From a bacterium (GTDB lineage: Bacteria > Patescibacteriota > Patescibacteriia > Patescibacteriales > XYC2-FULL-47-12): a stretch of DNA of 64,000 bases. The stretch lies in the NCBI GenBank assembly GCA_030698385.1, contig JAUYLZ010000008.1:1430-65429 (forward strand), given 5' to 3'. Of the stretch, positions 6,960 through 61,743 are shown piece by piece (within the stretch, counting starts at the first letter, position 1; every line of letters begins with the position of its first letter). The notes under the pieces were generated by a model. The model was given only the letters and a program-made list of their open reading frames with translations. It was not told where the DNA came from and did not search any database. Made by a program: the position numbers and the translations under genes.

Positions 6960-8582
<1,623 letters not shown>

Positions 8583-8659
8583 AAGGAGTAATGTCACGGT
8601 GGAAGTGACATTGGTCGGTCCCAAAATTTTTGGGACGTTGCTATCGTAAGGTAGCGACA

Positions 8660-8687
8660 AATTGGCGCCTATTAATACTAAAAATAG
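8660..8687 (+). other. 16S trailer strand of the predicted processing stem
   Basis: aattggcgcctattaatactaaaaata pairs with leader 6835-6861. Confidence 0.65.
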
Positions 8688-8807
8688 GAAAGCAAGTAGT
8701 TTTATGGGGCTGCTTGTATATTAAATGCAGCCCGCTAAGGGCTTTTTTAGTTGCAAAAAATACATCATCGTAGTAAGCTAAAAATAAGTTTTGTTTAAAG
8801 TCTGGAT

Positions 8808-8881
8808 GGGCCCATAGCTCAGTTGGTTAGAGCACCGCCCTTATAAGGCGGGGGTCGATGGTTCGAGTCCATCTGGGCCCA
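8808..8881 (+). tRNA. tRNA-Ile (anticodon TAT)
   Basis: A 74-nt manual cloverleaf: acceptor GGGCCCA/TGGGCCC, anticodon arm CCGCC-CTTATAA-GGCGG, T arm GATGG-TTCGAGT-CCATC. No CCA is encoded. Confidence 0.85.
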
Positions 8882-8908
8882 CTGAATAAAATTTTAAAGT
8901 ATAGCGGG

Positions 8909-9137
8909 TATGTAGTTTATATTATTGAAAGTGATAATTATAGAAATAAAAAATAATTAATTATAGCGGGGTAGAGTCCCGCTGAGGCGGGAGCAGCTCG
9001 CCAGGCCCATAATCCCGCCGTGGCGGGATCGCCGATTTGAGACTTTATATCATGAATACTAATAAAAAATATGTAGTTTATATTATTGAAAGTGATAATT
9101 ATAGAAATAAAAAATAATTAATTATAGCGGGGTAGAG
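8909..9137 (+). repeat. Tandem duplication (161-nt period) of the initiator-tRNA leader and 5' end
   Basis: The 68-nt stretch at 8909-8976 is identical to 9070-9137. Confidence 0.9.
8965..9043 (+). pseudogene. Disrupted tRNA-fMet copy carrying two 16-nt GC hairpins
   Basis: It matches tRNA-fMet at agcggggtagag, gcagctcgccaggcccataa and tcgccg. The D-loop is replaced by tcccgctgaggcggga (8977-8992). The 3' anticodon stem and variable loop are replaced by tcccgccgtggcggga (9013-9028). The 3' acceptor strand is missing. Confidence 0.75.
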
Positions 9138-9198
9138 CAGATGGCAGCTCGCCAGGCCCATAACCTGGAGGTCGCCGGTTCGAGTCCGGCCCCCGCAA
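9126..9198 (+). tRNA. Initiator tRNA-fMet (anticodon CAT)
   Basis: Near-collinear with E. coli tRNA-fMet (…GCGGGGTAGAGCAG…CCCATAA…GGTTCGAGTCCGGCCCCCGCAA). It has a 1:72 mismatch (A:A) and the A11:U24 pair. Two G:C pairs lie next to the anticodon loop. Confidence 0.8.
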
Positions 9199-9285
9199 CA
9201 CGTTAATTTTAGATTTGAGATTTTAGATTACAGATTTATAACACTCAAAATTATAAATCTAAAATCATCAATCATAAATGCAATC

Positions 9286-9357
9286 GCCTCGGTAGCTCAG
9301 TGGTAGAGCAAAGGACTGAAAATCCTTGTGTCGTCAGTTCAATTCTGACCCGGGGCA
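9286..9357 (+). tRNA. tRNA-Phe (anticodon GAA)
   Basis: A 72-nt manual cloverleaf: acceptor GCCTCGG/CCGGGGC and anticodon loop CTGAAAA. Confidence 0.85.
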
Positions 9358-9387
9358 CAACTATATAAAAACTATGACTTATGATTT

Positions 9388-9461
9388 GGGCAATTAGCTC
9401 AGTTGGTTAGAGCGCGTCCCTGATAAGGACGAGGTCGGTGGTTCGAATCCACCATTGCCCA
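9388..9461 (+). tRNA. tRNA-Ile (anticodon GAT)
   Basis: A 74-nt manual cloverleaf: acceptor GGGCAAT/ATTGCCC and anticodon loop CTGATAA. Confidence 0.85.
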
Positions 9462-9473
9462 CCTAAAAATCTA

Positions 9474-14949: not shown

Positions 14950-16176
14950 ATGAATACACAAGTAATGGAAACGCCGCAAACACCAAATCGACTGAGACAG
15001 ACAATAATAGAATGCAAGCTGAATGAAAATGTATTTGAACTTCCCTTAGACTACAAACTAAGGCCAAAGGTCAAAAAAATACTGATTGAAGTGTTAAAAT
15101 TTGCCATTGCGCCAGAAACCAGCGCGGACTTCCCCCGTCTTTTCCAGATACGCCGATATATTGAAAAAGAGCTGGGATACAGCCCGTCTTACATCTCACA
15201 GCTAAGAGATGCTCAGATTATTAAACAGATAGACAAAAACACTTGGGAGTTTTCTGCGGACTTCTTAAGGAAAATCTGCGGCACCAACGATTCAATGACC
15301 GTTAACGCGGCAACTGACATAATCGAAACGGAGAAAATAATGATTAACTCAGAAAACAAAACGATAATTGATAAGCTCAAACAAAAAATTGAAAGCCAAG
15401 ACTTTGGTTTTCTTGCTGGTATTCAGTTGGGCAATAAAGAACGTCAATCGCTGATTGCCGCCCTTGAGCTCGCTTGTCTACCAGAAAACGCCGGCGTATT
15501 TCCGGAGTTGCCGGGGTTAAAAAACTATGTGGTCAAAGAACGCAAGTTCAACTCCGGCTATTTAACCAAACTCAAATACAAGTGCATATTGGTGCATTGT
15601 GCTACTGGACGCTGGGCGTTGTCGCAAGGATTTTTGGAGCTGGTTGAGGGAAAAGAAACCACCATAACAACGACTCCGGCTAAAAAAAAAGTAAACACGG
15701 AGTTGAATGAAACAGAAGAAAAACTCTATAGATTCATCCGCAGCGAAACCGTTGGCGATGAACTGCTGTTTGCGCTTGACCTAAATCAGCGCTCGCAAGA
15801 AGTAACCGGACTGAATGGAATAAAAGCGGTAGAACGCGCTCTGGAAAGTGTGGAAAAAAAGGGTTTTATCAATATAAAATCCACCGATTCTACGGACACA
15901 CTGCTGATTTCTTTCTCCGGCCAGACTGAAAAAAAGACAAAAAAACGGACAGGGGCTTTAAAAATGGAAAAAAAATCACCGTCAGAAACGCCAAAGGTAG
16001 AGGTTGGTTTAGACATTACTCTTAACGACTTAATAACCATGCGACAAAAGGAAATTGACAGACTAGCTGAAGAAAAAAAACGACTACAAAACCAAATGAA
16101 ATCAATCGAAAAAGAAATATTAATGAACAAAAAAGCAATATCTAATATCCAAAATCTCAGTAAAAACGCTCTCTAA
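14950..16176 (+). CDS. Hypothetical protein: three winged-helix-like repeats plus a C-terminal coiled coil
   Basis: An internal duplication aligns aa ~41-112 with ~162-233 at about 29% ungapped identity. A third wHTH-like segment covers aa ~255-325. The last ~60 aa are heptad-rich (EIDRLAEEKKRLQNQMKSIEKEI). The SD aaaaaggagag lies upstream. Confidence 0.7.
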   Translation: MNTQVMETPQTPNRLRQTIIECKLNENVFELPLDYKLRPKVKKILIEVLKFAIAPETSADFPRLFQIRRYIEKELGYSPSYISQLRDAQIIKQIDKNTWEFSADFLRKICGTNDSMTVNAATDIIETEKIMINSENKTIIDKLKQKIESQDFGFLAGIQLGNKERQSLIAALELACLPENAGVFPELPGLKNYVVKERKFNSGYLTKLKYKCILVHCATGRWALSQGFLELVEGKETTITTTPAKKKVNTELNETEEKLYRFIRSETVGDELLFALDLNQRSQEVTGLNGIKAVERALESVEKKGFINIKSTDSTDTLLISFSGQTEKKTKKRTGALKMEKKSPSETPKVEVGLDITLNDLITMRQKEIDRLAEEKKRLQNQMKSIEKEILMNKKAISNIQNLSKNAL

Positions 16177-16193
16177 GAAAGGGGTGACTGCAA

Positions 16194-16724
16194 ATGTTTA
16201 ACGAAGAACTGGCTAAACAACAAGTGGCCGAGTGCTTAAAACGCTATTGCCAAAGAGAAAACATTGGCATAACATTTGCCGCCGAAAAATTAGAACTTCC
16301 CTTCACAAGCTTTCGGCGCTGGTGTATTGGCGAATCAGTCCCGCACAATGAAAATCGGAAAAAAATTATTGAGCTGTTTCCAGAACTGGAGCAGGTATTT
16401 GCTGATGATGCCGGCGAGATTGGCAAAACCATCAGCATGATCAAAAACGAATTAGCAACCAATGTAGAGTTGCCAAGATCATCTAGCAATGAAATAGAAT
16501 GCGCGATAAACATCGCTTTGGTCAAAAAAGACGTTCTGTCGCTTTCTCATATTCTGGCATGGTTCATCTATCAAGCCGATACGCGGGAACGTCAGCAATT
16601 GCGAGATGTACTGGGAGAAGACTGGCAAACATTTCACAAGCATGTTCGCGCTCTAGTGTCGGAAAAGGCCAGAGACAAAAGTTTTGAAGACGGTGATATC
16701 CCCGCTTTAAAAGGAGGCTTTTAA
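16194..16724 (+). CDS. Hypothetical small HTH-like protein
   Basis: The N-terminal ITFAAEKLELPFTSFRRWCIGESVP resembles an XRE/terminase-type HTH. An SD is present, and the stop overlaps the next start (TAATG). Confidence 0.6.
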   Translation: MFNEELAKQQVAECLKRYCQRENIGITFAAEKLELPFTSFRRWCIGESVPHNENRKKIIELFPELEQVFADDAGEIGKTISMIKNELATNVELPRSSSNEIECAINIALVKKDVLSLSHILAWFIYQADTRERQQLRDVLGEDWQTFHKHVRALVSEKARDKSFEDGDIPALKGGF

Positions 16725-18256
16725 TGGTAAGTCAAATTGAAATAAAATTCCACATGGGCAACGTAGTAAAATATATTTCTCAAATATACTCCAAACCAAC
16801 TGCTACGCCGCGCGAATGCGTGCAAAACGCGCTGGATAAATTCGCTCAAAAAATTATTATTATCATTGATCATGTAAAAAAAAGACTAACCATTTATGAC
16901 GACGGAAATGGAGCTAGCGAGGTTGAAATGAGACGCAAATTCGAAAATATCGGATTAAGTCTCAAAATTGATGACGATGATCTGGCAGGAAAAAAAGGCA
17001 TCGGAAACCTGGCGGCAATTTCAATAGCTAAAAGGTGGGTATTAATTAGCCGGGATCATACAAATAAAAATGACCCATTTAAAAAATACGTACTTGACCG
17101 TAAGGAGCTTGAGAAAAGCTCTAATATTGAAATTAATGCCAGTTTGTTGGAAGAAAAATATATCACTCGCGATTTGGATTTCAAACCAACCTCAATGGTT
17201 ATGGCGGATGGCGTAGATGAAAATGTTTTAAAGAATTTAACTATTGAGGCGATTGAAGAAGAAATTCTGGATTCTTTTCACCAGCAGCTAAAGTCAAGAA
17301 AAGTGGAGGTAAAAATAGTATCCATCAAGCAAATAAAAAATGGGAAAAATAAAGTTGATGAAAAAATTCTGCTGCCGGCAAAATTTCGCGGTTCACGTAT
17401 GGATCCTGTAACTATACAAACTAAGTACGGCGAGATAAAGTTCGGCTTTTACTTTTCTTCAGAACCCCTCAAAAAACCATTGATTCTGATTGAGCATAAA
17501 AAAAACTATTCATTGCCATTTCGAAAGTTATTTGACAACAAACAGCTTGATGAAAAAATTTACGATATTTTCAAACAAGGTTTGTTTGAAGGCACAATAG
17601 CTCTGCCCTTCTGCGCGTTAAACGCGGATAGAGATGGTTTTGAATGGAACGATGAACTCGGCGCTTTTATTGATTCGGTAAGAATCGTCTTTGAACAAGC
17701 GCTCAAACCGCTGGTTGATCAATTTGAAGAAGAAAAAAGGGAGGAAAAATATAAACAAATCACCAAATCAATTCACAAAAAAATGTCAGATTTGTTTAAA
17801 AGTAATCCAAACCTGATTCCTGACAATTTGCGTGCTTTGGTTAAAAGAATGAACGGCATTACCGCACAACAGGCGGCCAAAACAAAAACTATACCAAAAA
17901 CATTGCTTAATGATCAATTAAAAAAATCACGACAAAAGTCTTCGGAAACAAAATCGCGCGAAAAACGCACGGGCAATATCGGCATAGATTATGTAATGCC
18001 TAATGCTGAAGAAGGATTGAAATGGCACTCCAAATTTGAAGAAGGCTGTATCAAGGTAAACTGTTTCAATGACAGCTTCATTCAGGCAGAAAGAATGGGA
18101 ATGACACAATTAACGAACTACGTCTTTTTGTTAGTACAAAAAGAATTTACCTGCGCGGTTGTGCGCAATGATCCAAACAGATCTTTTTCGGAAATATTTG
18201 AAAAAGTATTCATGTCTTATTGGGGCGCAAACTTAGTAAGACCAAACAAAGCGTAG
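16724..18256 (+). CDS. GHKL (Bergerat-fold) ATPase, MutL/MORC-like, with an uncharacterised C-terminal ~300 aa
   Basis: Has the N box E31-CVQ-N35-AL-D38, the G1 box D59-D-G-N-G63 and the G2 box G89-KK-G-I-G94. Confidence 0.75.
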   Translation: MVSQIEIKFHMGNVVKYISQIYSKPTATPRECVQNALDKFAQKIIIIIDHVKKRLTIYDDGNGASEVEMRRKFENIGLSLKIDDDDLAGKKGIGNLAAISIAKRWVLISRDHTNKNDPFKKYVLDRKELEKSSNIEINASLLEEKYITRDLDFKPTSMVMADGVDENVLKNLTIEAIEEEILDSFHQQLKSRKVEVKIVSIKQIKNGKNKVDEKILLPAKFRGSRMDPVTIQTKYGEIKFGFYFSSEPLKKPLILIEHKKNYSLPFRKLFDNKQLDEKIYDIFKQGLFEGTIALPFCALNADRDGFEWNDELGAFIDSVRIVFEQALKPLVDQFEEEKREEKYKQITKSIHKKMSDLFKSNPNLIPDNLRALVKRMNGITAQQAAKTKTIPKTLLNDQLKKSRQKSSETKSREKRTGNIGIDYVMPNAEEGLKWHSKFEEGCIKVNCFNDSFIQAERMGMTQLTNYVFLLVQKEFTCAVVRNDPNRSFSEIFEKVFMSYWGANLVRPNKA

Positions 18257-41314: not shown

Positions 41315-41935
41315 CTACTTCCTTTTTACATCTGCTTTAATCATTTTTACTATTTCCGGAAATTCAGATATTTTAAAGTGTCCATTTTTACTTTCATAGA
41401 CTATAAAATTTGCATTTTTTAGCTTCCTCTTAAATTTTTCAGAGTGCGCGACAGGAACAACATCATCATCTTTAGAAAACATTAAATATAAATTTTTGGA
41501 ATTTTTCTCAAGCAAAAACAAATTAGATTTTAACTTAAATCCGCCGACTAAATCTTCTTCGGACAAAGTATTGTCATAAGGCGGGCAAATTAAATAAGTT
41601 GAAAGTATTTTTTTGGGAAATTTATTTTCAGACAAATATTTTGCGAGAAAAATCCCCCCTAAAGATGAGCCAATTAAAATGATATTGTTCCGCAATTGAG
41701 GAAAAAAATTTTCAAAATGAATTTTCCATTCTTTATACTTAGCATTGTCTTGCAAAGGCATACGAGGTTTTATAATCTCAAAATTCTTTCCAAGATTTCT
41801 CTTTAAAAACTCATCAGTCCAACTAATTTTTTTCTCAATTGATACTTCTCTTGTTTTTAAAAAATGCAAATAATCTTTCTTGCTTTTGAAAGTCATTCCG
41901 CCATGAATAATAAATATTTGAATTTTCTTTTTCAT
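41315..41935 (-). CDS. Alpha/beta serine hydrolase (YdeN/RBBP9-like)
   Basis: Contains IIHGG, a GSSLGG nucleophile elbow, DDDVVP and NGHF. I start at MKKKIQ. Confidence 0.65.
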   Translation of the reverse strand: MKKKIQIFIIHGGMTFKSKKDYLHFLKTREVSIEKKISWTDEFLKRNLGKNFEIIKPRMPLQDNAKYKEWKIHFENFFPQLRNNIILIGSSLGGIFLAKYLSENKFPKKILSTYLICPPYDNTLSEEDLVGGFKLKSNLFLLEKNSKNLYLMFSKDDDVVPVAHSEKFKRKLKNANFIVYESKNGHFKISEFPEIVKMIKADVKRK

Positions 41936-41995
41936 AGAGATAATATCAAGTACCAAGCCTCATACACGCTGTTGTACGATGTAATTTTAAAATTA

Positions 41996-42766
41996 TTATT
42001 TTTGACAAACAAAAAATACTGGAGGGTGATTATAGACATTATCTTGGTCATGAATGTCGATGTTAGATATCTCATTTTCTCGTTTGGCAAAAATAATATT
42101 AAAACCAGCTTGTTTTATCTGCTTAATGACTGTTGCTTTGTTGGCAATATGCATAAATTGTGTTTGTTTCAGGGCTACCCCATCTATGTGGCGAGTAAAA
42201 ATATAATCGCCAAAATCAACTTCTTTTATTTTTATTCCCAAAGGTTTTAGGATATAAAATTTTAGAAAATTTTTAAACCAGAAAAAACTAAAATCTCTCT
42301 TAACTCTGACATGAGCGGCTAGAATAAAATAACCACCGGGCTTTATAACGCGGTAAATTTCATCAATAGCTTTTTGTCTTTTTTGCTTGCTGGGAATTTG
42401 CCCAAATCCATTTGTAGAAAAAATTGCGTTATCAAATGAGTTGTCGGAATATTTTAATTTTGTTGCGTCACCGATTGCATAACTTATTGCCAGATTTTTT
42501 TCTTGAACAATTTTTTTGGCATTTGCGATCATTTCCGGGACTAAGTCGATTCCTAAAACTTTATATCCCAAATTATAAGTAGGAATAGTTGTTCTACCAG
42601 TGCCGCACCCAATATCTAACAAAGTTGATTTTGGCTTAAAAAATTTGGCAATCAGGATTTTTTCGCTATTCCATAAACCTCTATCAGCTTTTTTAAGATA
42701 ATTTTTTTGAGTTACATCAGAGCCAAATTCTTTGATTATATTTTTTTGTAAATCTTCAACTGTCAT
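41996..42766 (-). CDS. Class I SAM-dependent methyltransferase
   Basis: Has motif I LLDIGCGTGRTT. Confidence 0.75.
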   Translation of the reverse strand: MTVEDLQKNIIKEFGSDVTQKNYLKKADRGLWNSEKILIAKFFKPKSTLLDIGCGTGRTTIPTYNLGYKVLGIDLVPEMIANAKKIVQEKNLAISYAIGDATKLKYSDNSFDNAIFSTNGFGQIPSKQKRQKAIDEIYRVIKPGGYFILAAHVRVKRDFSFFWFKNFLKFYILKPLGIKIKEVDFGDYIFTRHIDGVALKQTQFMHIANKATVIKQIKQAGFNIIFAKRENEISNIDIHDQDNVYNHPPVFFVCQK

Positions 42767-46029: not shown

Positions 46030-47650
46030 TCCTGACTTGTACCTTCGCCAAAATCTAAAAAATAATTTAGCTAAAGTATAATAAAAATTGTCTAAAAAAA
46101 TTAAATTTGTCATACTAAGGGTAATAATCATGCCCTTATGTACCATATTCGCACAACTAAAACTTCCTCTAAAGCGACGGCTGTCCAAGTGGTCAGATAC
46201 GAAGACCGCAAGCTGATCGTAGCGGCGCACGTCGGCAGCGCCCATAATGCGGAGGAATTAAACGCTCTGAAAAAGTCAGCCTCTGTCTGGATTGAAAAAG
46301 CCTCTAAACAAGCATCTCTGTTCCCGGTTAGCCAGTTAAGCGCTAATTTCATCCAGCTCGACAAATGCCGATACCTGGGCGTGCGTTATGGATTTATCCA
46401 CGAAGTTCTGATGCGGATCGCCGGACATTTTGATTTCTGCTCTTTGACGGATAAAGCCATGTTTATCGATCTGATCATCATCCGCATTATCGAACCGGCG
46501 TCCAAGCTCTATTCCCTGGAACTGCTCAATGAATTTTTCAATATCAAATATCTACGTAAGGATTTCTACCGCTACCTGCCAGAATTCGCTTTGTTAAAAG
46601 ACAAAACAGAAAACAAAATTTTAGCTCTGGCTAAAAATGAATTTAATTTCGATTTCTCTCTTGTTTTTTACGATGTGACCACGCTCTATTTCGAAACTTT
46701 CCAGTCAGACGAGTTGCGGAAGCCGGGATTCTCGAAAGACAACAAATCGCAGTAGCCGCAGATCCTGATCGGCTTGATCGTAGACGCCCAAGGGTTTCCG
46801 GTCGCCTACGAGATGTTTCAAGGCAATGAATTCGAAGGCAAGACGTTCATCCCGATTATTTCCGCTTTTAAAAGAAAGCATGATATCAAAGAGCTGACGG
46901 TAGTGGCTGATGCCGCCATGCTGAGCATGGACAATGTCAAAGCGCTTAAGGCTAACGGATTGTCATATATCGTCGGAGCGCGCCTCGGCAATCTGCCGGG
47001 TAAGCTGAGCAAGGAGATTGATCTGAAGCTGGAACGGAAAAACAAAGCCAATATCAGAGTAGAAACAGAACACGGAATGTTGGTCTGCGATTGGAGCGAA
47101 AAACGCTACCGCAAGGACAAGTCTGATATGGACAAGCAGATCAAGAAGGCGGAAATGCTCTTAAAAAATCCCGGACGGACCAAGCGGGCTAAATTCGTCA
47201 AAGGCAAAAACAAGACCGAACTGGAAATGAATGACGAGCTGATCGAGAAAACCAAACTGCTTCTGGGAATCAAGGGGTATTACACTAATCTGCCGGAAGA
47301 GATCGATAATGAAACTATCGTCAGGCAATATCATAACCTGTGGCACGTAGAGCTGGCATTCAGGATAGCTAAAAGCGATTTGGAAATCAGGCCGATTTAT
47401 CATTTTAAACGAGAGACGATCGAGGTCCATATTCTGATCTGCTTTATGGCTCTGGCCATCTGCAAATACATGGAAATCAAAACCGGCATTTCAACCAGAC
47501 AGATTATCAAGATTTTAAAGAGCGTTACCGACGCCAGGATTAAAAATATGCTTACTGGAGAGGAAATTACAATGCGGTCGGAATTATCTGCTGAAATTAA
47601 AACAATTTTATCAAGACTTGGGCTGTCATACTAAAAGGGACAAGTCGGGA
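46030..47650 (+). mobile_element. IS1634/IS4-like insertion sequence (~1.62 kb)
   Basis: The terminal inverted repeats are tcctgacttgtacc (46030-46043) and the reverse complement of gggacaagtcggga (47637-47650), matching 12 of 14. The subterminal direct repeat tgtcatactaa occurs near both ends. The IS sits between the rlmN stop and the shared rlmN/greA terminator. Confidence 0.75.
46138..47634 (+). pseudogene. DDE transposase interrupted by one in-frame TAG (46753-46755)
   Basis: Both ORFs are in the same frame. The junction …FSKDNKSQ*PQILIGLIVDAQGFPV… is continuous. The DDE blocks are FYDVTTLYFE, VVADAAMLS and YHNLWHVELAFRIAKSDLEIRPIYH. Confidence 0.7.
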
Positions 47651-55786: not shown

Positions 55787-55934
55787 GAAAAATATTTTTA
55801 ATCTCAATTTTTATCCTGAGTGATTTCTGCTTTTTTGTCAAAAAAAAATCAACCTGCTCTAATTATACTTCTTTTTTGGTAAATAAAAAAATCGCGAGCG
55901 CAAAACTCGCGGATTTATCATAATCATTCTGCAT

Positions 55935-56504
55935 TTATATTACCCCTCTAGCCATCAGCTCAAAAAAACACTTGGCGCACGCTCTGACATCCGCCAGCGC
56001 GTCGTGCGCGCCGTCAAAACTTTCATCAAATAACTTCTGATGCAACTCCATAAGCTTGGGCCACTTGTAGCCATAGTAACCTTCGATGCCGCAGTAGTCG
56101 GTTGACTCCTGCATCGTGCACACTCTTGGCAATGTAAAAAAATTATTCTGAATAGCCTGGCGCGCGAATTCAGCTCCCATGATTTTTTCATCAAAGCGAA
56201 TATTGTGCGCCACGAGCACTTTGGCTGCCGCCAGCGCCTGCCCAAACTCCGTCAGCGCTTCTGCCAAATCAACTCCTTCGGCGAGCGCGCGCTCGGTCGT
56301 AATGCCGTGCACGTTTGAGGCTTCTTCTGGAATTATAAAGCCATCCGGCCTGATAATAAAATTATTGCCCGAAACTTCCTTGCCATTTTCATCGCTGACC
56401 AGCCACGCGAGCTGAACCAGCCGCGGCCAGTTGTCCACGTCTTCAACCGGCGCCTGCCAGTCGCGGGGCAGGCCGGTGGTTTCAGTATCAAAGAATAAAA
56501 ACAT
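55935..56504 (-). CDS. DEDDh 3'-5' exonuclease (DnaQ-like)
   Basis: Has Exo I FFDTETTG, Exo II HNIRFD and Exo III HDALADV. I start at M49 of the tracked ORF. Confidence 0.8.
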   Translation of the reverse strand: MFLFFDTETTGLPRDWQAPVEDVDNWPRLVQLAWLVSDENGKEVSGNNFIIRPDGFIIPEEASNVHGITTERALAEGVDLAEALTEFGQALAAAKVLVAHNIRFDEKIMGAEFARQAIQNNFFTLPRVCTMQESTDYCGIEGYYGYKWPKLMELHQKLFDESFDGAHDALADVRACAKCFFELMARGVI

Positions 56505-56672
56505 AAAAACAATGGTTACTTTTTTGTACGGTCTTCCCGCGCGCCCATAATCACCGCGCCGATGACCAAAAGACACACAACGATAATAATTCCTAACCAC
56601 ATCATAAATTTTATCTTTTAAATAAACTTGGCATTTGCATACAATCACAGTATAGCACTATCTTCACCAAAT

Positions 56673-56701
56673 AAAAAACCGCCCCGCAGACTGCGGGACG
56701 G
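56673..56701 (-). terminator. Intrinsic terminator after mrr
   Basis: ccgtcccgcagtctgcggggcgg followed by a T-run on the minus strand. Confidence 0.65.
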
Positions 56702-56784
56702 AGAAGGCGGAGAGGACTACCTTTTTATATTCGTGGGTGGCTATGTGAAACGAAAAAATGCTATTAGGTAATTTTACCTACTAT

Positions 56785-57684
56785 CTATCCTTCTTCAAAA
56801 AAATCATTATCCAATTCTTTCACTTCATACCTTGTCTTTACCTGCACACCGACATTGTATTTAACCATGAGATCGGCTAATTCTTCTCCATTAATTAAAA
56901 TAATTTTATGATTATGATCATTTTTTGCTTTATCTACTGCTGATTGGTCAAATTTAGAAGTTGCGACAAAAATTCCCTTACTAACATCACCACTCATAGC
57001 GCCAATAAAATTTCTAATTGCTGGCTCCCGAACAATACTATGATCCGCATAACGCTTCGCCTGAATATAAATTTTTTCTAATCCCAATTTATCTTGACTG
57101 ATGATGCCATCCACTCCGCCATCTCCTGATTTCGGCGTCTCCTGAAAATCACCGTAACCCATCGCTTGAAATAAAATCAAGACTACTTTTTCAAAAAAAT
57201 AAGGATTGGAATTATGTAGCTTTTCTAACAAATCACTCTTGAGCGTGTCTTGTATATCCTGAAAACCGATGTCAATCATGTCTTGTGGTGAAAATTTTGT
57301 TGCCACTGACTTACCAATCTCTTCTTTAGTTTTATCGCGTCCTCCCGCCTGAAATGCAATAAATGAGGGGTATTTTGCCAGAAATTCAACTGTTATGCTA
57401 TCCAAATTTTGTGCTAACACATTAAGTCCTTCTTTTGTAATTTTAACCTTCCCTCTTTCCGGTTGTTCTACTAAGCCGGCTTTTTTCAAATAAGTTCTGC
57501 CCCAGCCGACACGATCAAAAAATCTGCTGTATCCATTTGAGACAGTTTCTTTCTTTTCATCTTCCGTTAAATTAAAATATTTTTCTTGTACCTCATCTGA
57601 AAGTCCCTGCATCGTTCTAACTTTTTCGTCTTGCAAGACTTTTAAAATCGGTAACATTGTCTCGTCAAATTTTGGGATTGACAT
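56785..57684 (-). CDS. mrr: Mrr-family modification-dependent restriction endonuclease
   Basis: Has the Mrr_N winged helix (MLPILKVL…) and the Mrr_cat PD-(D/E)xK domain (GDGGVDGI…IYIQAKRY). Confidence 0.85.
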   Translation of the reverse strand: MSIPKFDETMLPILKVLQDEKVRTMQGLSDEVQEKYFNLTEDEKKETVSNGYSRFFDRVGWGRTYLKKAGLVEQPERGKVKITKEGLNVLAQNLDSITVEFLAKYPSFIAFQAGGRDKTKEEIGKSVATKFSPQDMIDIGFQDIQDTLKSDLLEKLHNSNPYFFEKVVLILFQAMGYGDFQETPKSGDGGVDGIISQDKLGLEKIYIQAKRYADHSIVREPAIRNFIGAMSGDVSKGIFVATSKFDQSAVDKAKNDHNHKIILINGEELADLMVKYNVGVQVKTRYEVKELDNDFFEEG

Positions 57685-57878
57685 AAAAACTTATTTAATA
57701 AGCAGTTCCAATTAAATTCCTATAATCATTTGATAAAAAATATACTTAATAAAATGACTAAAATTAGCAATTTTATTGTATTGACTATAAAAGCCTTTAA
57801 AAAGTTGCTGAATCCCCCTACATCCTCCTCCCGCCACGCCCTCGCTTGGACGGACGTAATTTTTGGCGGCGGGTATTA

Positions 57879-58505
57879 TTAAAAATTCTTCTCTCGTATA
57901 AAAAATCCTCTCGTACTCTTCATTGCTCGCTTGAAAAATTTATAGACAGATTTGATAAAGACTGCAATTTTACTCCACAATGTTTTGTGATTTTTATATT
58001 TTAGGAAATTGATAAAATTTTTACTATTGATTTCCTTTAAGTGGCGATTTATTTCGTCTTTTTCCCAAGATGCAACAAAAGATATTTTCTTAACTGATTC
58101 ACATCCGAAACAGAATTCAAGTGACCCAGCAGTTGACAATTTTTCTTTTGGAATTTCAAAATACAAAATTTCCATTATACTTTCCGGAACAAATTTCACT
58201 TCGTCTTTGGTATAACCAGCTAGATATGATCCGCCTCCAAGATTTGAATTTTTTACATGAAAATTTGTTTGTTCGTCCCAGCTAGGTGCAAATTTTGTAC
58301 TAGCTATTCCGATAAAAGCAGAAAACCAAACTTTGTTTATAATTGAATGGTAATTGTTTTTTAATACAACCGAAAAAATAATTTTATTTTGATCGCCTTG
58401 TTCGCGGATTACAAAAAAATACCTCAAATCTCCTTTCGATTCGGACTTTTTTGTATCTTTCCTAAAATTAAAGTTAGTATTTACGGTAAAAATGCTTGGA
58501 TTCAT
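57879..58505 (-). CDS. Hypothetical protein (AT-rich; beta-rich N-terminal region and basic amphipathic C-terminus)
   Basis: An ORF with no recognisable motif. Its composition is visibly more AT-rich than its neighbours. Confidence 0.5.
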   Translation of the reverse strand: MNPSIFTVNTNFNFRKDTKKSESKGDLRYFFVIREQGDQNKIIFSVVLKNNYHSIINKVWFSAFIGIASTKFAPSWDEQTNFHVKNSNLGGGSYLAGYTKDEVKFVPESIMEILYFEIPKEKLSTAGSLEFCFGCESVKKISFVASWEKDEINRHLKEINSKNFINFLKYKNHKTLWSKIAVFIKSVYKFFKRAMKSTRGFFIREKNF

Positions 58506-58532
58506 AATTAACTTGCTATCTCAAAAATTTTA

Positions 58533-58712
58533 TTATAATAACTTGTGTAGCACTGCACCAGTAGCACATTGTATTGACCGCTCAATATCATTCCACAAAC
58601 CTTCGTCATTTTCAATCATACTCAAAATGTCTTTTACTTGTTGGTCTGTAAGTTTGACCCTTGACTTACGCCGAACTTCATCAGCGGTTATGATAAAGCG
58701 TGCTTCACGCAT
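58533..58712 (-). CDS. Hypothetical 59-aa protein (not in the ORF track)
   Basis: My translation is MREARFIITADEVRRKSRVKLTDQQVKDILSMIENDEGLWNDIERSIQCATGAVLHKLL. Its ATG lies 5 nt after the DpnI-like stop, and it ends 27 nt before the next gene. Confidence 0.5.
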   Translation of the reverse strand: MREARFIITADEVRRKSRVKLTDQQVKDILSMIENDEGLWNDIERSIQCATGAVLHKLL

Positions 58713-58717
58713 ATATA

Positions 58718-59488
58718 TTACATTAATTGATACGACCCGCGCGCCACAAAATCAAGATAGCCCTTGTCACGCAAGATCTGTAACTGCTGGCGGATTTTAT
58801 CTTTGATGTGTTTATTCTCGGGATGCAATTTTTGCAACTCACCAACAAAAGCGTAGAGGTCGCTTAAAGTAAACTCTCGTTTGCCAAGCCTCTCAACACA
58901 GCGCATGGTATCCAGCAACCAGCCCTTGGCGGTGGCTTCTTTTTCTTCGCGCAAAAAAAGCGTCTTTTGCCAGGTGGCGAGCACCTTGTCCTTTGGCTCA
59001 ACCTGTTGGTTTTTAACAAAAAATATTTTGCCGGTCTGCGGTATGCTCTCAAGGATGATGTTACAGCCCACCCAACCGGCGCGACGGGCGGTCGGCGCGA
59101 GCGGCTTGCGTTGTTCAATAATTTCGGGAACAAAAAAATGTTTCGGTATGACCAAAAAGTTCAGTACGGCCAGGCTCTGCCAATCGTAGCTCAGTAAAAA
59201 CAGGTTTGGGTTATGAGCGCTCTGCAAACGCTCAAGCATAGTGCGGTACGCGCCGTCAACAACTTTTGCGCCGATACCGCCGCGTTTGCTTTTGAGTTCG
59301 TAATCTTCGCTGCAATTTGAGCAGAAAAAATCAGCGACGGGCTGATTATTTGGATACTGATCAATATCAAGATGCCCGCAGTTTGGGCAAAAGACAACGC
59401 TGTCAACCCAGTGCTCGGTCAAAACCCGCGCCTGTTGCGCGGCGTTTTTGTAGTTGTCAGCCAGTTTTTTTTCAAAGTGTAACTCCAT
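58718..59488 (-). CDS. DpnI-like methyl-directed (GmATC) type IIM restriction endonuclease
   Basis: Collinear with my recollection of DpnI. Shared blocks are MELHF…, CPNCG…, PVADFFCSNC…ELKSK, APTARRAGWVGCNI and IKDKIRQQLQILRDKG. Confidence 0.85.
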   Translation of the reverse strand: MELHFEKKLADNYKNAAQQARVLTEHWVDSVVFCPNCGHLDIDQYPNNQPVADFFCSNCSEDYELKSKRGGIGAKVVDGAYRTMLERLQSAHNPNLFLLSYDWQSLAVLNFLVIPKHFFVPEIIEQRKPLAPTARRAGWVGCNIILESIPQTGKIFFVKNQQVEPKDKVLATWQKTLFLREEKEATAKGWLLDTMRCVERLGKREFTLSDLYAFVGELQKLHPENKHIKDKIRQQLQILRDKGYLDFVARGSYQLM

Positions 59489-59519
59489 AGTTTTCTCTTT
59501 TTATCTTCGCACTTTCCTT

Positions 59520-59936
59520 TCAAGAAGTCAAACCAAAAAAGAGGCCTTTTACCTCTCTTTTTACCTGTAACGACCGCCCTGCTAAATATCTGCCAACACG
59601 CGCCAGCCAGAGCTTGAACGGCTCGGCGTTTGGCGAGGGAATGGATTGAATCAGACGAAGCATCGTTTCGGTATCCGCCGCATCGGTAGCGTAATATTTT
59701 CCATCAATAGCTAAAAATTTCAGTTGGTGACATTTTGTCACCACCTCGCTACCCTCCTCACGCAGTCTTTGGGATAGCTTATTCCAGTACTTTCTGGCAT
59801 CAACACTCCCGGTCAAAATCCGAACTACATCAACCACGGAAAAGTACCACAACTCTTTTTCCTCGTCCCAGTGACGGCGAATATGTTTACCATCAAAAAT
59901 CGCTATCGCTTTATTTTTTGCTGATTGCTTGGTCAT
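59520..59936 (-). CDS. Bro-N domain protein, apparently C-terminally truncated
   Basis: The Bro-N-like core is FDGKHIRRHWDEEKELWYFSVVDVVRILTGS…PFKLWLARVG. It then ends in an unrelated 23-aa tail. Confidence 0.6.
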   Translation of the reverse strand: MTKQSAKNKAIAIFDGKHIRRHWDEEKELWYFSVVDVVRILTGSVDARKYWNKLSQRLREEGSEVVTKCHQLKFLAIDGKYYATDAADTETMLRLIQSIPSPNAEPFKLWLARVGRYLAGRSLQVKREVKGLFFGLTS

Positions 59937-60676
59937 ACAACAGTCTTTACCGCCTCAAAGGTTAAAGACTCTAAGGGCAGGCATTGATACTGCTCTTTGC
60001 TGATGCCGGTATTTTCCTTTAAAACATTGACGGTAAAGCCAGCGTTCTTGAGCTTTTTGAGATAGTCGTCCTTGAGCAGGGCGCCGCCGACACAGCCCGC
60101 GATGAGCGCTTCGTCGCGGCGCGCTTCCGGCGCGAGTTCGGCGAGCAAAACGATATCGGAGACGACCATGCGCCCGCCGGGTTTTAAGACGCGGTAGGCC
60201 TCGGCGAAAACTTTGTCTTTGTCCGGCGCGAGATTAATAACGCAGTTGCTGATGATGATGTCGGCCTCGCCGTCTGCCAGGGGCAAATTTTCAATGTCGC
60301 CGAGCCGAAACTGGGCGTTAGCGCAGTTGATTTTTTGCGCGTTCGCGCGCGCTTTTTCAACCATCTCCGGCGTCATGTCCACGCCGATGACCCGTCCGGC
60401 CGGACCGGTTTTTTTGGCGGCCAAAAAGGCGTCAAAACCCGCGCCCGAACCAAGGTCTAAAACCGTGTCGCCCGAGTTGATTTTGGCCAGACCCAGGGGA
60501 TTGCCGCAACCCAAGCCCAGATTGGCCTCGGGCATGGCGTTCAGATCGGCGGCGCTGTAGCCGATTTGGGCGGAAATTTTTTTATTTTTACAATTGCAAC
60601 CGCAACCACCGGCGGTGGCGGCGATTTTGGCGTAGCTTTTTTGCACGATGTTTTTGATGTCTTTTTCGTCTGACAT
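59933..60676 (-). CDS. arsM: Arsenite S-adenosylmethionine methyltransferase
   Basis: Has SAM motif I VLDLGSGAGFD and conserved Cys clusters (GCGCNC, GLGCGNP, SNCVINL). Confidence 0.8.
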   Translation of the reverse strand: MSDEKDIKNIVQKSYAKIAATAGGCGCNCKNKKISAQIGYSAADLNAMPEANLGLGCGNPLGLAKINSGDTVLDLGSGAGFDAFLAAKKTGPAGRVIGVDMTPEMVEKARANAQKINCANAQFRLGDIENLPLADGEADIIISNCVINLAPDKDKVFAEAYRVLKPGGRMVVSDIVLLAELAPEARRDEALIAGCVGGALLKDDYLKKLKNAGFTVNVLKENTGISKEQYQCLPLESLTFEAVKTVV

Positions 60677-60768
60677 GCTATTATCTTTACACTTTTATAC
60701 TGAGAAGTCAAAAAAAAGATGAGCGGATTTTCTTGCTCATCTCAATAAATGAATATGGTTCAAAAGAC

Positions 60769-61029: not shown

Positions 61030-61153
61030 GACTTTCTCCTTTCAAGATTATATTTTTATCATTCTTTCACTTTTTTTAACAAAAGTCAACCAGACAAAAA
61101 ACCGCGCCGCACTCAGAAGCTATCTTAAAAATCAAACATTATTCGCGAATAAC

Positions 61154-61486: not shown

Positions 61487-61743
61487 GCTATTGCTCCTTT
61501 CAAAGAACATTACTTTCTTTCATCTTCCCACTTTGTAAAAGAAAAGTCAAAAAAATCCGCGCTGTTTAGGTGTGAAAAGTTTTTCATAAATAACCACTAT
61601 TTCACTATTTTTAAAAATTCACGAAAAAATACGGCCGAGCAAGCCGCTCACTGAAGTAAAAAAATTTCAAATTCAATGAAATATAAAGTATAATAAAATA
61701 AAGGTCGAAACTTTTACTTAAAAATTTATTTAAAAGAAATACT

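Follow-up and report, generated by a model that had tools for sequence, protein, structure and literature searches.

Two predicted modification-dependent restriction genes, of the DpnI and Mrr types, in a compositionally mosaic block of a Patescibacteria-type chromosome

When two nucleases predicted to depend on DNA modification are encoded side by side, we can ask: Do they belong to one defence island, or do they act separately among neighbours of other origin? This question is raised by a block of six minus-strand ORFs in a small-genome Patescibacteria-type bacterium, located within the 64-kb stretch of DNA that we analyzed (the window). The preliminary description of this DNA listed a truncated Bro-N gene, a DpnI-like gene, two further ORFs, an Mrr gene and a DEDDh exonuclease gene. 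All six have been found where it placed them, with only the exonuclease start amended, most likely to 56504 (Table 1). The DpnI-type and Mrr-type genes are both intact and 1 kb apart.

Table 1. Features of the block and its flank (positions in the window)
Feature	Position	Strand	Basis or description
Terminator 3′ of exonuclease	55893..55911	-	Hairpin/terminator scan
Stand-alone DEDDh (DnaQ-like) 3′-5′ exonuclease, 189 aa	55935..56504 (ORF to 56648)	-	RNase_T 7.8e-14
Intrinsic terminator 3′ of Mrr	56679..56701	-	10-bp stem, 8 GC pairs, TTTTTTATTT tail (T-run)
EcoKMrr-like type IV modification-dependent restriction endonuclease (predicted), 299 aa	56785..57684	-	Pfam, PADLOC, E. coli Mrr alignment
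U208, conserved uncharacterised protein, 208 aa	57879..58505	-	Beta-sandwich and long C-terminal helix (AF2)
Orphan 59-aa ORF	58533..58712	-	Starts 6 nt past DpnI stop
DpnI-family type IIM restriction endonuclease, 256 aa, predicted Gm6ATC-dependent	58718..59488	-	Pfam, PADLOC, PDB matches
Promoter-like TTGACT-N14-TGc-GAAGAT	59503..59531	-	Repeat family D1 and regex scan
Terminator-like hairpin in non-homologous Bro-N′ tail	59535..59561	-	11-bp stem, 3 GC pairs, then T-run
Truncated Bro-N gene (Bro-N′), 138 aa	59520..59936	-	Pfam Bro-N E=1.3e-7
Arsenite (small-molecule) SAM methyltransferase ArsM, flanking	59933..60676	-	NF008823 4.2e-93

The DpnI-family protein matches the Pfam catalytic domain PF06044 (5e-79) and DpnI_C, PF17726 (8e-31), the PADLOC profile mREase_II (2e-112) and, by phmmer, R.DpnI of Streptococcus pneumoniae (PDB 4ESJ, E=6.5e-86, residues 1-254). 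This type IIM enzyme (PDB 4ESJ/4KYW) has nearly the same length (254 versus 256 aa here) and the same architecture, an N-terminal PD-(D/E)XK domain with a Zn site followed by a C-terminal winged helix. The two proteins share E25, D53, E64, K66 and both CXXC motifs, all validated in DpnI by mutagenesis or structure (PMC3424567). The winged-helix residues D230, K231, R233, Q234 and Q237 are also kept: four of these five methyl-pocket positions (K/R/Q/Q) are identical to R.DpnI, and the fifth, Glu228 of R.DpnI, is Asp here. Catalytic, CXXC and winged-helix residues, this Asp included, are invariant among 18 aligned close homologues. Identity to the chromosomal DpnI-family gene of N. gonorrhoeae is 43.5% over 99% of the protein, and gonococcal Drg is described in PMC4269198 as a GmeATC-specific endonuclease. 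The Neisseria 'Dam-replacing' enzymes Drg/NmeBII belong to the same family (PF06044 is named 'Dam-replacing family') and, like the gene analyzed here, are solo chromosomal genes without a methylase. Unlike the setting of R.DpnI, the window locus has no dpnD-like partner or alternative DpnII cassette, and the orphan 59-aa ORF lies downstream.

The Mrr protein carries Mrr_N (1.6e-26) and Mrr_cat (1.7e-33) domains and matches the PADLOC profile mREase_IV over its full length (5.8e-69). It aligns co-linearly with E. coli K-12 Mrr (32% identity, residues 1-297 versus 1-304, E=6e-44), with D192 opposite the catalytic D203 of EcoKMrr and Q208-x-K210 opposite Q219-x-K221. Neither protein has a cognate methylase. 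The E. coli gene lies inside the hsd/mcr 'immigration control region', whereas the window gene lies outside such a region. The target spectrum of EcoKMrr is itself only loosely defined; D203A is a catalytic mutant of that enzyme.

The absence of a DNA methyltransferase from the island, as first noted, was borne out by three kinds of scan and extends to the entire 64 kb. Stop-to-stop ORFs of at least 80 aa contained no (D/N/S)PP(Y/F/W/H) and no C5 motif, and Pfam scans of all ORFs of at least 120 aa gave no DNA methyltransferase. As tblastn queries on the window, E. coli Dam and a HinfI-type methylase, as well as DpnII fragments and a DpnA-like one, gave a best E of 0.13. The flanking SAM methyltransferase was considered as a candidate and rejected, being an arsenite methyltransferase by NF008823 (311.8 bits, above the cut-off of 263). 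GATC is mildly under-represented in the window (O/E 0.76), like other palindromes.

Every checked catalytic and methyl-sensing residue is kept in both nucleases, and the proposal that they cut methylated invader DNA while the host stays unmethylated is therefore well supported; it is also the activity for which both families are known. With both genes full length and no methylase partner, the type IV/IIM strategy suggested earlier is the best reading of the sequence. We consider it probable that this region of a Patescibacteria (CPR) chromosome is a mosaic patch whose accessory genes were acquired independently of one another, and that it holds two separate, self-sufficient modification-dependent restriction genes.

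The exonuclease has the three Exo motifs of DnaQ/epsilon-like DEDDh enzymes (DxE in FDTET, D in RFDEK, H-x4-D in HDALAD) and matches RNase_T, the PADLOC DEDDh profile (2e-28), phrog_192 (1.8e-35) and Pol III epsilon structures (about 1e-5), but falls far under every NCBIfam equivalog cut-off. Its start is most likely M49, at 56504, the residue at which the alignment with homologues in 80 genomes begins. The 310 relatives come from many phyla (the 189-aa family spans Patescibacteria, Bacteroidota, Elusimicrobia and archaea), and the best 80 of the 310, at 53-71% identity, were examined for context: none of the 80 loci had Mrr, DpnI, U208 or Bro-N nearby. The exonuclease looks like an independent gene, adjacent yet in a separate transcription unit.

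Homologues of the DpnI-family gene are very common in Patescibacteria and always solo in the contexts examined. We found no intact DNA methylase in any of seven other DpnI contexts within 7-10 kb where the contig reaches (two loci end less than 1 kb away on one side). The closest homologue among the matches listed (80% identity) is flanked by a truncated DpnA-like methylase gene and a truncated DpnII gene, and another adjoins a Dam fragment aligning with Dam residues 149-226 only. The position of DpnI beside decayed GATC-methylase genes in two cases supports the incompatibility of DpnI with GATC methylation. Pneumococcal DpnI and DpnII are interchangeable cassettes according to Lacks et al. 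1986, as cited in PMC3812788, and their exclusivity is mirrored in relative L002, where a DpnI gene stands in place of the 3′ portion of a DpnA-like methylase gene and the 5′ portion of a DpnII gene. Homologues of the gene in the window replace or abut dead GATC-methylase genes, in the way that drg replaces dam. The window differs from the pneumococcal cassettes in having no trace of a DpnII system, and DNA conservation between loci covers the DpnI ORF only and does not extend to a cassette of several genes with common flanks. It differs from drg at dam in that DpnI interrupts a Bro-N gene, with no methylase remnant detectable by tblastn.

Could these enzymes serve nutrition instead? An episymbiont unable to make nucleotides might degrade imported methylated host DNA for salvage and spare its own, and a role of CPR restriction enzymes in recycling nucleotides is put forward in a 2026 preprint (10.64898/2026.07.13.738296). 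The DpnI family, with more than 7800 matches, the best 120 of them at 72-80% identity with invariant catalytic and sensor residues, is conserved more uniformly than typical patchy defence genes, and a 3′-5′ exonuclease adjoins. Against this, the exonuclease is unlinked to DpnI and Mrr in its best 80 of 310 loci, DpnI is also present in non-CPR genomes with respiratory-complex genes, and the classical biology of DpnI and Mrr is restriction. The sequence itself holds nothing that would separate feeding from defence, and on balance we regard the nutritional role as unlikely.

The preliminary description treated the block as one defence island, which would mean a single co-acquired set of cooperating genes, with the exonuclease, for example, degrading fragments made by the nucleases. 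The genes are indeed co-oriented and tightly packed. The PADLOC DEDDh profile is listed as CRISPR-associated, the exonuclease also matches defence candidate PDC-S48, and Bro-N′ matches candidates PDC-S13 and PDC-S04. However, the composition and the signals between the genes speak against a single set. Per-gene GC ranges across the block from 30 to 55% (exonuclease 0.52, Mrr 0.36, DpnI 0.48, ArsM 0.55, and U208, the most AT-rich gene, 0.30), giving at least three compositional classes. Terminators separate the units: the preliminary description was right to give Mrr and the exonuclease a terminator each, and the strong one after Mrr divides these two genes. A terminator-like hairpin and a promoter divide Bro-N′ from DpnI. 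This promoter-like element lies 14 nt 5′ of the DpnI start codon and has two near-identical copies nearby, one before ArsM and the other before ORF71. The DpnI/Mrr block is thus a compositional mosaic of separate transcription units and no single system. At the DNA level the homology of its genes with relatives is confined to single ORFs. A search at the block for an integrase, tRNA or flanking repeats revealed none of these marks of a mobile island, and no close relatives were found that could reveal a presence/absence polymorphism.

Bro-N′, whose start overlaps the arsenite methyltransferase stop (ATGA), is truncated, as previously described, because its match spans only the N-terminal part of family profiles of 274-292 aa (3-112 of 286 for PDC-S13, 3-121 of 292 for PDC-S04, 3-112 of 274 for phrog_15286). 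Its homology stops near residue 116 (about 59588), and the tail beyond this point is encoded by the hairpin and promoter. Bro-N′ is a remnant cut about 100 nt 5′ of the DpnI start, with these two elements in the gap, and its truncation counts against a set of cooperating genes. The 59-aa ORF had no family match in Pfam, PADLOC, NCBIfam or PHROG profiles, and among 5.8 billion proteins it matched only itself. Within it lie a weak hairpin at 58710..58698 and a promoter-like site at 58615..58587; the ORF is probably no gene and non-coding. U208 also had no family match in profile searches. Its AF2 model (pLDDT 73) has only generic Ig/CBM-like fold matches, with TM 0.34 or below. It is rare (7 representatives among 1.84 billion), with about 50 clusters, the named ones all from Parcubacteria. 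Its contexts elsewhere vary and several adjoin R-M genes, which points to an uncharacterised cassette tending to lie near restriction genes; DpnI and Mrr were absent from the other U208 contexts examined. Likewise, Mrr, the exonuclease and U208 were absent from all seven other DpnI contexts. Since co-occurrence is lacking, the one-island reading is largely refuted, and we hold it to be very unlikely.

It is least probable, and indeed highly improbable, that the nucleases are relics or selfish passengers, one or both silent or non-functional, with the DpnI-like gene left over from an earlier R-M switch as a 'Dam-replacing' gene: there is clear debris in the block (the truncated Bro-N gene and the 59-aa orphan), DpnI genes elsewhere lie amid the wreckage of GATC R-M systems, and the Neisseria member is presented in PMC4269198 as a dam-replacing gene affecting viability and biofilm, but both nuclease ORFs run their full length and keep every key residue, the DpnI promoter matches those of resident neighbours, the Mrr terminator is clean and tblastn detected no methylase remnant adjoining DpnI in the window.

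We return to the mosaic patch with two self-sufficient restriction genes. By inference, chance alone would seldom (under about 1%) place two such genes no more than three gene positions apart in a genome of about 1000 genes, and their proximity agrees with the clustering for which defence genes are known. Solo methyl-dependent nucleases without a nearby DNA methylase are the textbook arrangement for such enzymes, which makes the locus a sound yet ordinary defence patch. Calling it a notable investment now seems too strong: DpnI homologues number in the thousands, many of the closest are from Patescibacteria, and a high density of defence genes is reported for CPR (PMC12259885).

From sequence we infer the enzymatic specificity, the lack of methylation at GATC in the host and a role directed against phages or MGEs. 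The DpnI-family type IIM enzyme, with its own host-type promoter, would cut with its PD-(D/E)XK/Zn domain and sense both N6-methyl groups of Gm6ATC with its winged helix. It would thereby cleave phage, plasmid or transforming DNA that comes in Dam-methylated from organisms with GATC methylation, and leave the unmethylated chromosome of the host uncut. The EcoKMrr-like type IV enzyme, with its Mrr_N winged helix, Mrr_cat D...QxK nuclease and strong terminator at the end of the gene, would cleave DNA with other foreign m6A or m5C patterns. The exonuclease, with its own promoter and terminator, would be an unrelated neighbour, and Bro-N′, the 59-aa ORF and U208, like it, would be no parts of a common machine. 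Neither nuclease would need a methylase, and both would limit which methylases the host can carry; if a Dam-type methylase is encoded elsewhere in the genome, the DpnI-like gene would be inactive or tightly controlled. Jointly, the two enzymes would broaden the range of methylation patterns that this bacterium rejects.

All six minus-strand genes of the preliminary description were recovered by ORF listing and profile searches, and both of its terminators were detected. Their positions, with those of related features and loci, are collected in the table.

Features of the gene block, of the rest of the window and of loci in other contigs (window coordinates unless a locus number, L, is given)
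Feature	Position	Strand	Size or remark
Bro-N' (truncated Bro-N gene)	59520-59936	minus	138 aa
DpnI-family protein	58718-59488	minus	256 aa
U59	58533-58712	minus	59-aa ORF
U208	57879-58505	minus	208-aa ORF
Mrr protein	56785-57684	minus	299 aa
DEDDh exonuclease, most likely extent	55935-56504	minus	189 aa, starting at Met49 of listed ORF 55935-56648
Terminators	56701..56679, 55911..55893		
Terminator-like hairpin	59561..59535		in tail of Bro-N'
Promoter-like element before DpnI	59531..59503	minus	TTGACT-N14-TGc-GAAGAT
Promoter-like copies	59503-59531, 60683-60711, 61522-61550	minus	TTGACT-N14-TGn-(G/A)AAGAT
Looser fourth promoter-like copy	61053-61089		
ArsM	59933-60676		abuts the block
DDE_Tnp_1 transposase gene	46774-47634	plus	
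16S rRNA region	6960-9463	plus	
Three co-oriented ORFs	14950-18256	plus	408 / 176 / 510 aa
Two strongly AT-rich genes	41315-42766	minus	
U208 with HinfI-type R-M genes	L099:656-1995, L100:136-2287		
U208 near LexA/S24-C5-methylase fusion	L010:1771-7642		
U208 near Eco57I-like gene	L011:1983-8606		
Closest DpnI relative	L002:9711-11472		80% identity
DpnI beside Dam remnant	L185:6244-7771, L186:5451-6978		73% identity

The block is not a single unit, since at least DpnI, Mrr and the exonuclease have separate expression signals. Three near-identical promoter-like copies each stop 6-14 nt short of a start codon, namely that of DpnI, of the flanking gene ArsM or of a 71-aa ORF, and a looser fourth copy has been found nearby. 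Because the element in front of DpnI belongs to this set, DpnI has its own promoter of a local type. With elements so alike and so near the starts, the transcripts may be nearly leaderless and the regulation perhaps shared. A strong terminator closes Mrr, and the exonuclease forms a further unit. Base composition is also heterogeneous: against a window mean GC of 0.43 (sd 0.054), the genes span 0.30-0.55 (z from -2.4 to +2.2), with values of 0.52 for the exonuclease, 0.36 for Mrr, 0.30 for U208, 0.39 for U59, 0.48 for DpnI, 0.46 for Bro-N' and 0.55 for ArsM.

The DpnI-like gene belongs to its family by every comparison made at the protein level. Its catalytic domain PF06044 (5.1e-79) covers profile positions 1-182 of 183, the C-terminal winged-helix domain PF17726 (7.6e-31) covers positions 2-69 of 70, and the PADLOC type IIM model matches at 2e-112. 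The alignment with R.DpnI of Streptococcus pneumoniae (PDB 4ESJ) includes residues 1-254 (E=6.5e-86) and is gap-free through residue 103. The active-site residues E25, D53, E64 and K66 and the two CXXC zinc motifs, which in R.DpnI are established by mutagenesis and structure (PMC3424567), are all kept at the same positions. In the winged helix, the m6A methyl-pocket residues E228, K229, R231, Q232 and Q235 of R.DpnI correspond to D230, K231, R233, Q234 and Q237, so that four of five are identical and one is a conservative E to D exchange. All catalytic, zinc and winged-helix positions are invariant in an alignment of 18 homologues, and the enzyme is predicted to cleave methylated GATC only.

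The Mrr-like gene likewise passes all sequence-level family tests. Mrr_N (PF14338, 1.6e-26) and Mrr_cat (PF04471, 1.7e-33) lie in a single polypeptide, of which residues 1-297 match positions 1-315 of 317 in the PADLOC mREase_IV profile (6e-69). The alignment with E. coli K-12 Mrr covers the full length (32% identity, E=6e-44) and pairs D192 with the catalytic D203 and Q208-A-K210 with Q219-A-K221. The motif (D/E)...(D/E/Q)xK and the D203A mutant of the E. coli enzyme have been described earlier (PMC3874153, PMC5435990). The predicted activity is modification-dependent damage to DNA or its cleavage.

That no DNA methyltransferase accompanies these nucleases had been proposed for the island; this was borne out in the block and extends to the whole 64-kb window, so Mrr too has no cognate methyltransferase there. 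Neither an amino-methyltransferase motif IV nor a C5 motif occurs in stop-to-stop ORFs of at least 80 aa across the 64 kb, Pfam identified no DNA methyltransferase in any window ORF of at least 120 aa, and tblastn with E. coli Dam, DpnA-like, HinfI-type and DpnII sequences returned nothing from the window. The abutting SAM methyltransferase, ArsM, scores above the NCBIfam cut-off for arsenite methyltransferases. GATC avoidance was tried as a proxy for methylation state and is uninformative, as the observed/expected ratio of 0.76 is a middling value among palindromes. Over the whole window this ratio is 0.54 for TCGA, 0.68 for GGCC and 0.69 for CTAG, and the low TCGA and GGCC values hint at former exposure to TaqI-like and HaeIII-like restriction.

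The best-supported reading, which we regard as very likely, is that of two independent, methylase-free, modification-dependent restriction enzymes. The DpnI-like protein would be a PD-(D/E)XK/Zn nuclease that works as a monomer and is licensed by fully methylated Gm6ATC, which it would recognise through both its catalytic and winged-helix domains, and the Mrr-like enzyme would be aimed at further patterns of m6A and m5C. Between them they would reject foreign-methylated DNA, the host chromosome being presumably unmethylated at those sites and hence safe. The same nucleases might instead serve nutritional scavenging of DNA, an idea aired for restriction enzymes of Patescibacteria (CPR) in a 2026 preprint (10.64898/2026.07.13.738296); for this locus we consider that very unlikely.

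The DpnI gene was also followed into other genomes. A database search gave more than 7800 DpnI clusters with E <=1e-10, and the best 120 of them show 72-80% identity, many carrying the names Patescibacteria, Paceibacteria or Falkowbacteria. In seven of seven other contexts DpnI stands solo with different neighbours each time; Mrr is beside it in none of the seven, and, as far as the contigs reach, no intact DNA methylase lies within 7-10 kb in any of them (two of these loci end less than 1 kb away on one side). DNA similarity between the window and the contig with the closest relative (L002) begins at the DpnI start codon and stops at its stop codon. DpnI genes in these lineages travel as single ORFs. 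Carriage by phages or plasmids was rejected, as the family is essentially absent from such collections: IMG/VR holds no relatives by protein query or by the 18-sequence alignment, GenBank phages give only a partial match to the winged helix, and the PLSDB matches are just two mis-filed Neisseria chromosomes.

Two groups of these loci preserve debris of GATC methylation. In L002-L004, DpnI and a 72-aa ORF of the AF_1447 family have on one side a DPPY N6/N4 methylase (DpnA-like) cut down to its first 97 residues, and on the other a DpnII endonuclease of which the last 153 residues remain. A replacement of DpnII by DpnI seems to have been caught here, in a metagenomic contig of Patescibacteria type. 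In L185 and L186, from a non-CPR genome, a 144-aa ORF adjoining DpnI matches only residues 149-226 of E. coli Dam and is a decayed Dam gene next to a "Dam-replacing" nuclease. Both cases support the mutual exclusion of DpnI and GATC methylation. Here one uncultured relative and one non-CPR genome echo the classic examples, the pneumococcal DpnI/DpnII cassettes and the dam-replacing gene of Neisseria (PMC4269198). A search next to the window DpnI itself gave no methylase or DpnII remnants.

The exonuclease ORF opens with GTG as listed, but in 80 genomes the alignment with homologues begins only at the internal Met49, so the shorter gene is most likely the true one. The DxE, D and H-x4-D motifs are present. 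There are 310 relatives in GTDB representative genomes, and the best 80 of these are 53-71% identical; the relatives span Patescibacteria, Bacteroidota, Elusimicrobia, Planctomycetota and methanogen/ANME archaea. Among these best 80 loci (L015-L094) the neighbourhood differs every time, and Mrr, DpnI, U208 or Bro-N stands beside the exonuclease in none. These loci show no conserved linkage to defence genes, as a defence component would be expected to have; the 189-aa protein looks like the product of a horizontally mobile single gene.

At the other end of the block, Bro-N' matches only positions 3-112 or 3-121 of three independent profiles that are 274-292 positions long, and it lacks the C-terminal region of ~160 aa found in full-length proteins of the Bro-N type or of the type of the PADLOC candidate profile PDC-S13. 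Its non-homologous tail is encoded by the terminator-like hairpin and the promoter-like element that precedes DpnI. For U59 no homologue was found; origins as a fragment of the genes preceding U208 elsewhere, or of the small ORFs that follow DpnI in L002 and L006 (unrelated by eye), were rejected.

The preliminary description had called the whole series a defence island. Clustering and atypical composition stand, with DpnI and Mrr 1 kb apart and both recognised by PADLOC restriction models, but signs of mobility and of one unit do not. No integrase, tRNA or convincing flanking repeats lie near the block, and the nearest transposase is the DDE_Tnp_1 gene ~9 kb away. In other genomes each gene of the block has unrelated surroundings. 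Tblastn and blastp with all window genes from 44 to 64 kb gave no conserved neighbourhood, and the best relatives of the flanking genes, 71% identical for the exonuclease (genome contigs) and 66% for ArsM (metagenomes), are non-syntenic. The collections searched contain no close relative of this genome; an identical match was obtained only to a 3.6-kb Logan contig (L001, run SRR13727534), which comes from this genome itself. No Rfam family matched in the block, the window matches being 16S rRNA and tRNAs elsewhere. One integrated island with the exonuclease as a member is accordingly highly improbable. Silent relics are hardly credible; the two nuclease genes are intact.

U208 is the only element of the block that holds real unknowns. 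The family is rare but real: it has seven representatives in a set of 1.84 billion proteins, and at 90% it comprises about 50 clusters. It has no match in Pfam, NCBIfam, PADLOC or PHROGs and is absent from IMG/VR. An AlphaFold model (pLDDT 73) predicts a beta-sandwich with a long C-terminal helix, for which PDB and BFVD offer no informative neighbour, only generic beta-sandwiches (TM <=0.34). Homology to the closest relative is confined to the ORF plus ~60 nt downstream, and the neighbours of U208 elsewhere show no homology to each other or to the window. There it follows HTH, membrane or unknown genes, or shares 4 nt with the end of a HinfI-type endonuclease and N6/N4 methylase pair (L099-L101). 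Two other loci have within a few kb of it a LexA/S24-C5-methylase fusion accompanied by Vsr in one case and an Eco57I-like gene in the other, and in the window it sits between the type IIM and type IV enzymes. It is conceivable, if rather unlikely, that U208 is an undescribed defence-associated family, restricted to Patescibacteria and repeatedly found by restriction genes; such a protein could be an accessory or independent anti-phage factor, or one that modulates restriction. A conserved GC-rich hairpin after U208 (57873-57823) was dropped because shuffled sequences fold about as well (z=0.41).

The rest of the window is ordinary chromosome, with trigger factor, NusA, the SUF system, NrdD and GreA. 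The complete 16S rRNA gene is 1621 nt long where the model has 1533 positions, and thus probably contains an insertion; four tRNAs (Ile-TAT, Met, Phe, Ile-GAT) follow it, with no adjacent 23S gene. The transposase sits among genes of metal and redox homeostasis (Fur, ZnuABC, thioredoxin-like, CcdA, ArsM). A further gain of recent date is probably the pair of AT-rich genes (GC 0.28 and 0.32, z < -2) whose products resemble a serine hydrolase and the SAM methyltransferase TehB. The three co-oriented ORFs, in an AT-skewed stretch, may form an uncharacterised conflict or defence module: the 510-aa ORF has a GHKL/HATPase_c_3 domain (4.6e-12), the other two have no family, and PADLOC gave no match.

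A high density of defence genes is already on record for CPR (PMC12259885), so the locus is a further case of known kinds and opens no long-standing question. It has modest practical worth, as a source of candidate Gm6ATC-dependent enzymes in a new lineage and as a pointer to the U208 family. For the biology of the organism, it would be a clean case of an episymbiont-type bacterium with a reduced genome that relies on modification-dependent restriction without methylases, and the prediction follows that this organism would be unable to carry Dam-type methylation.
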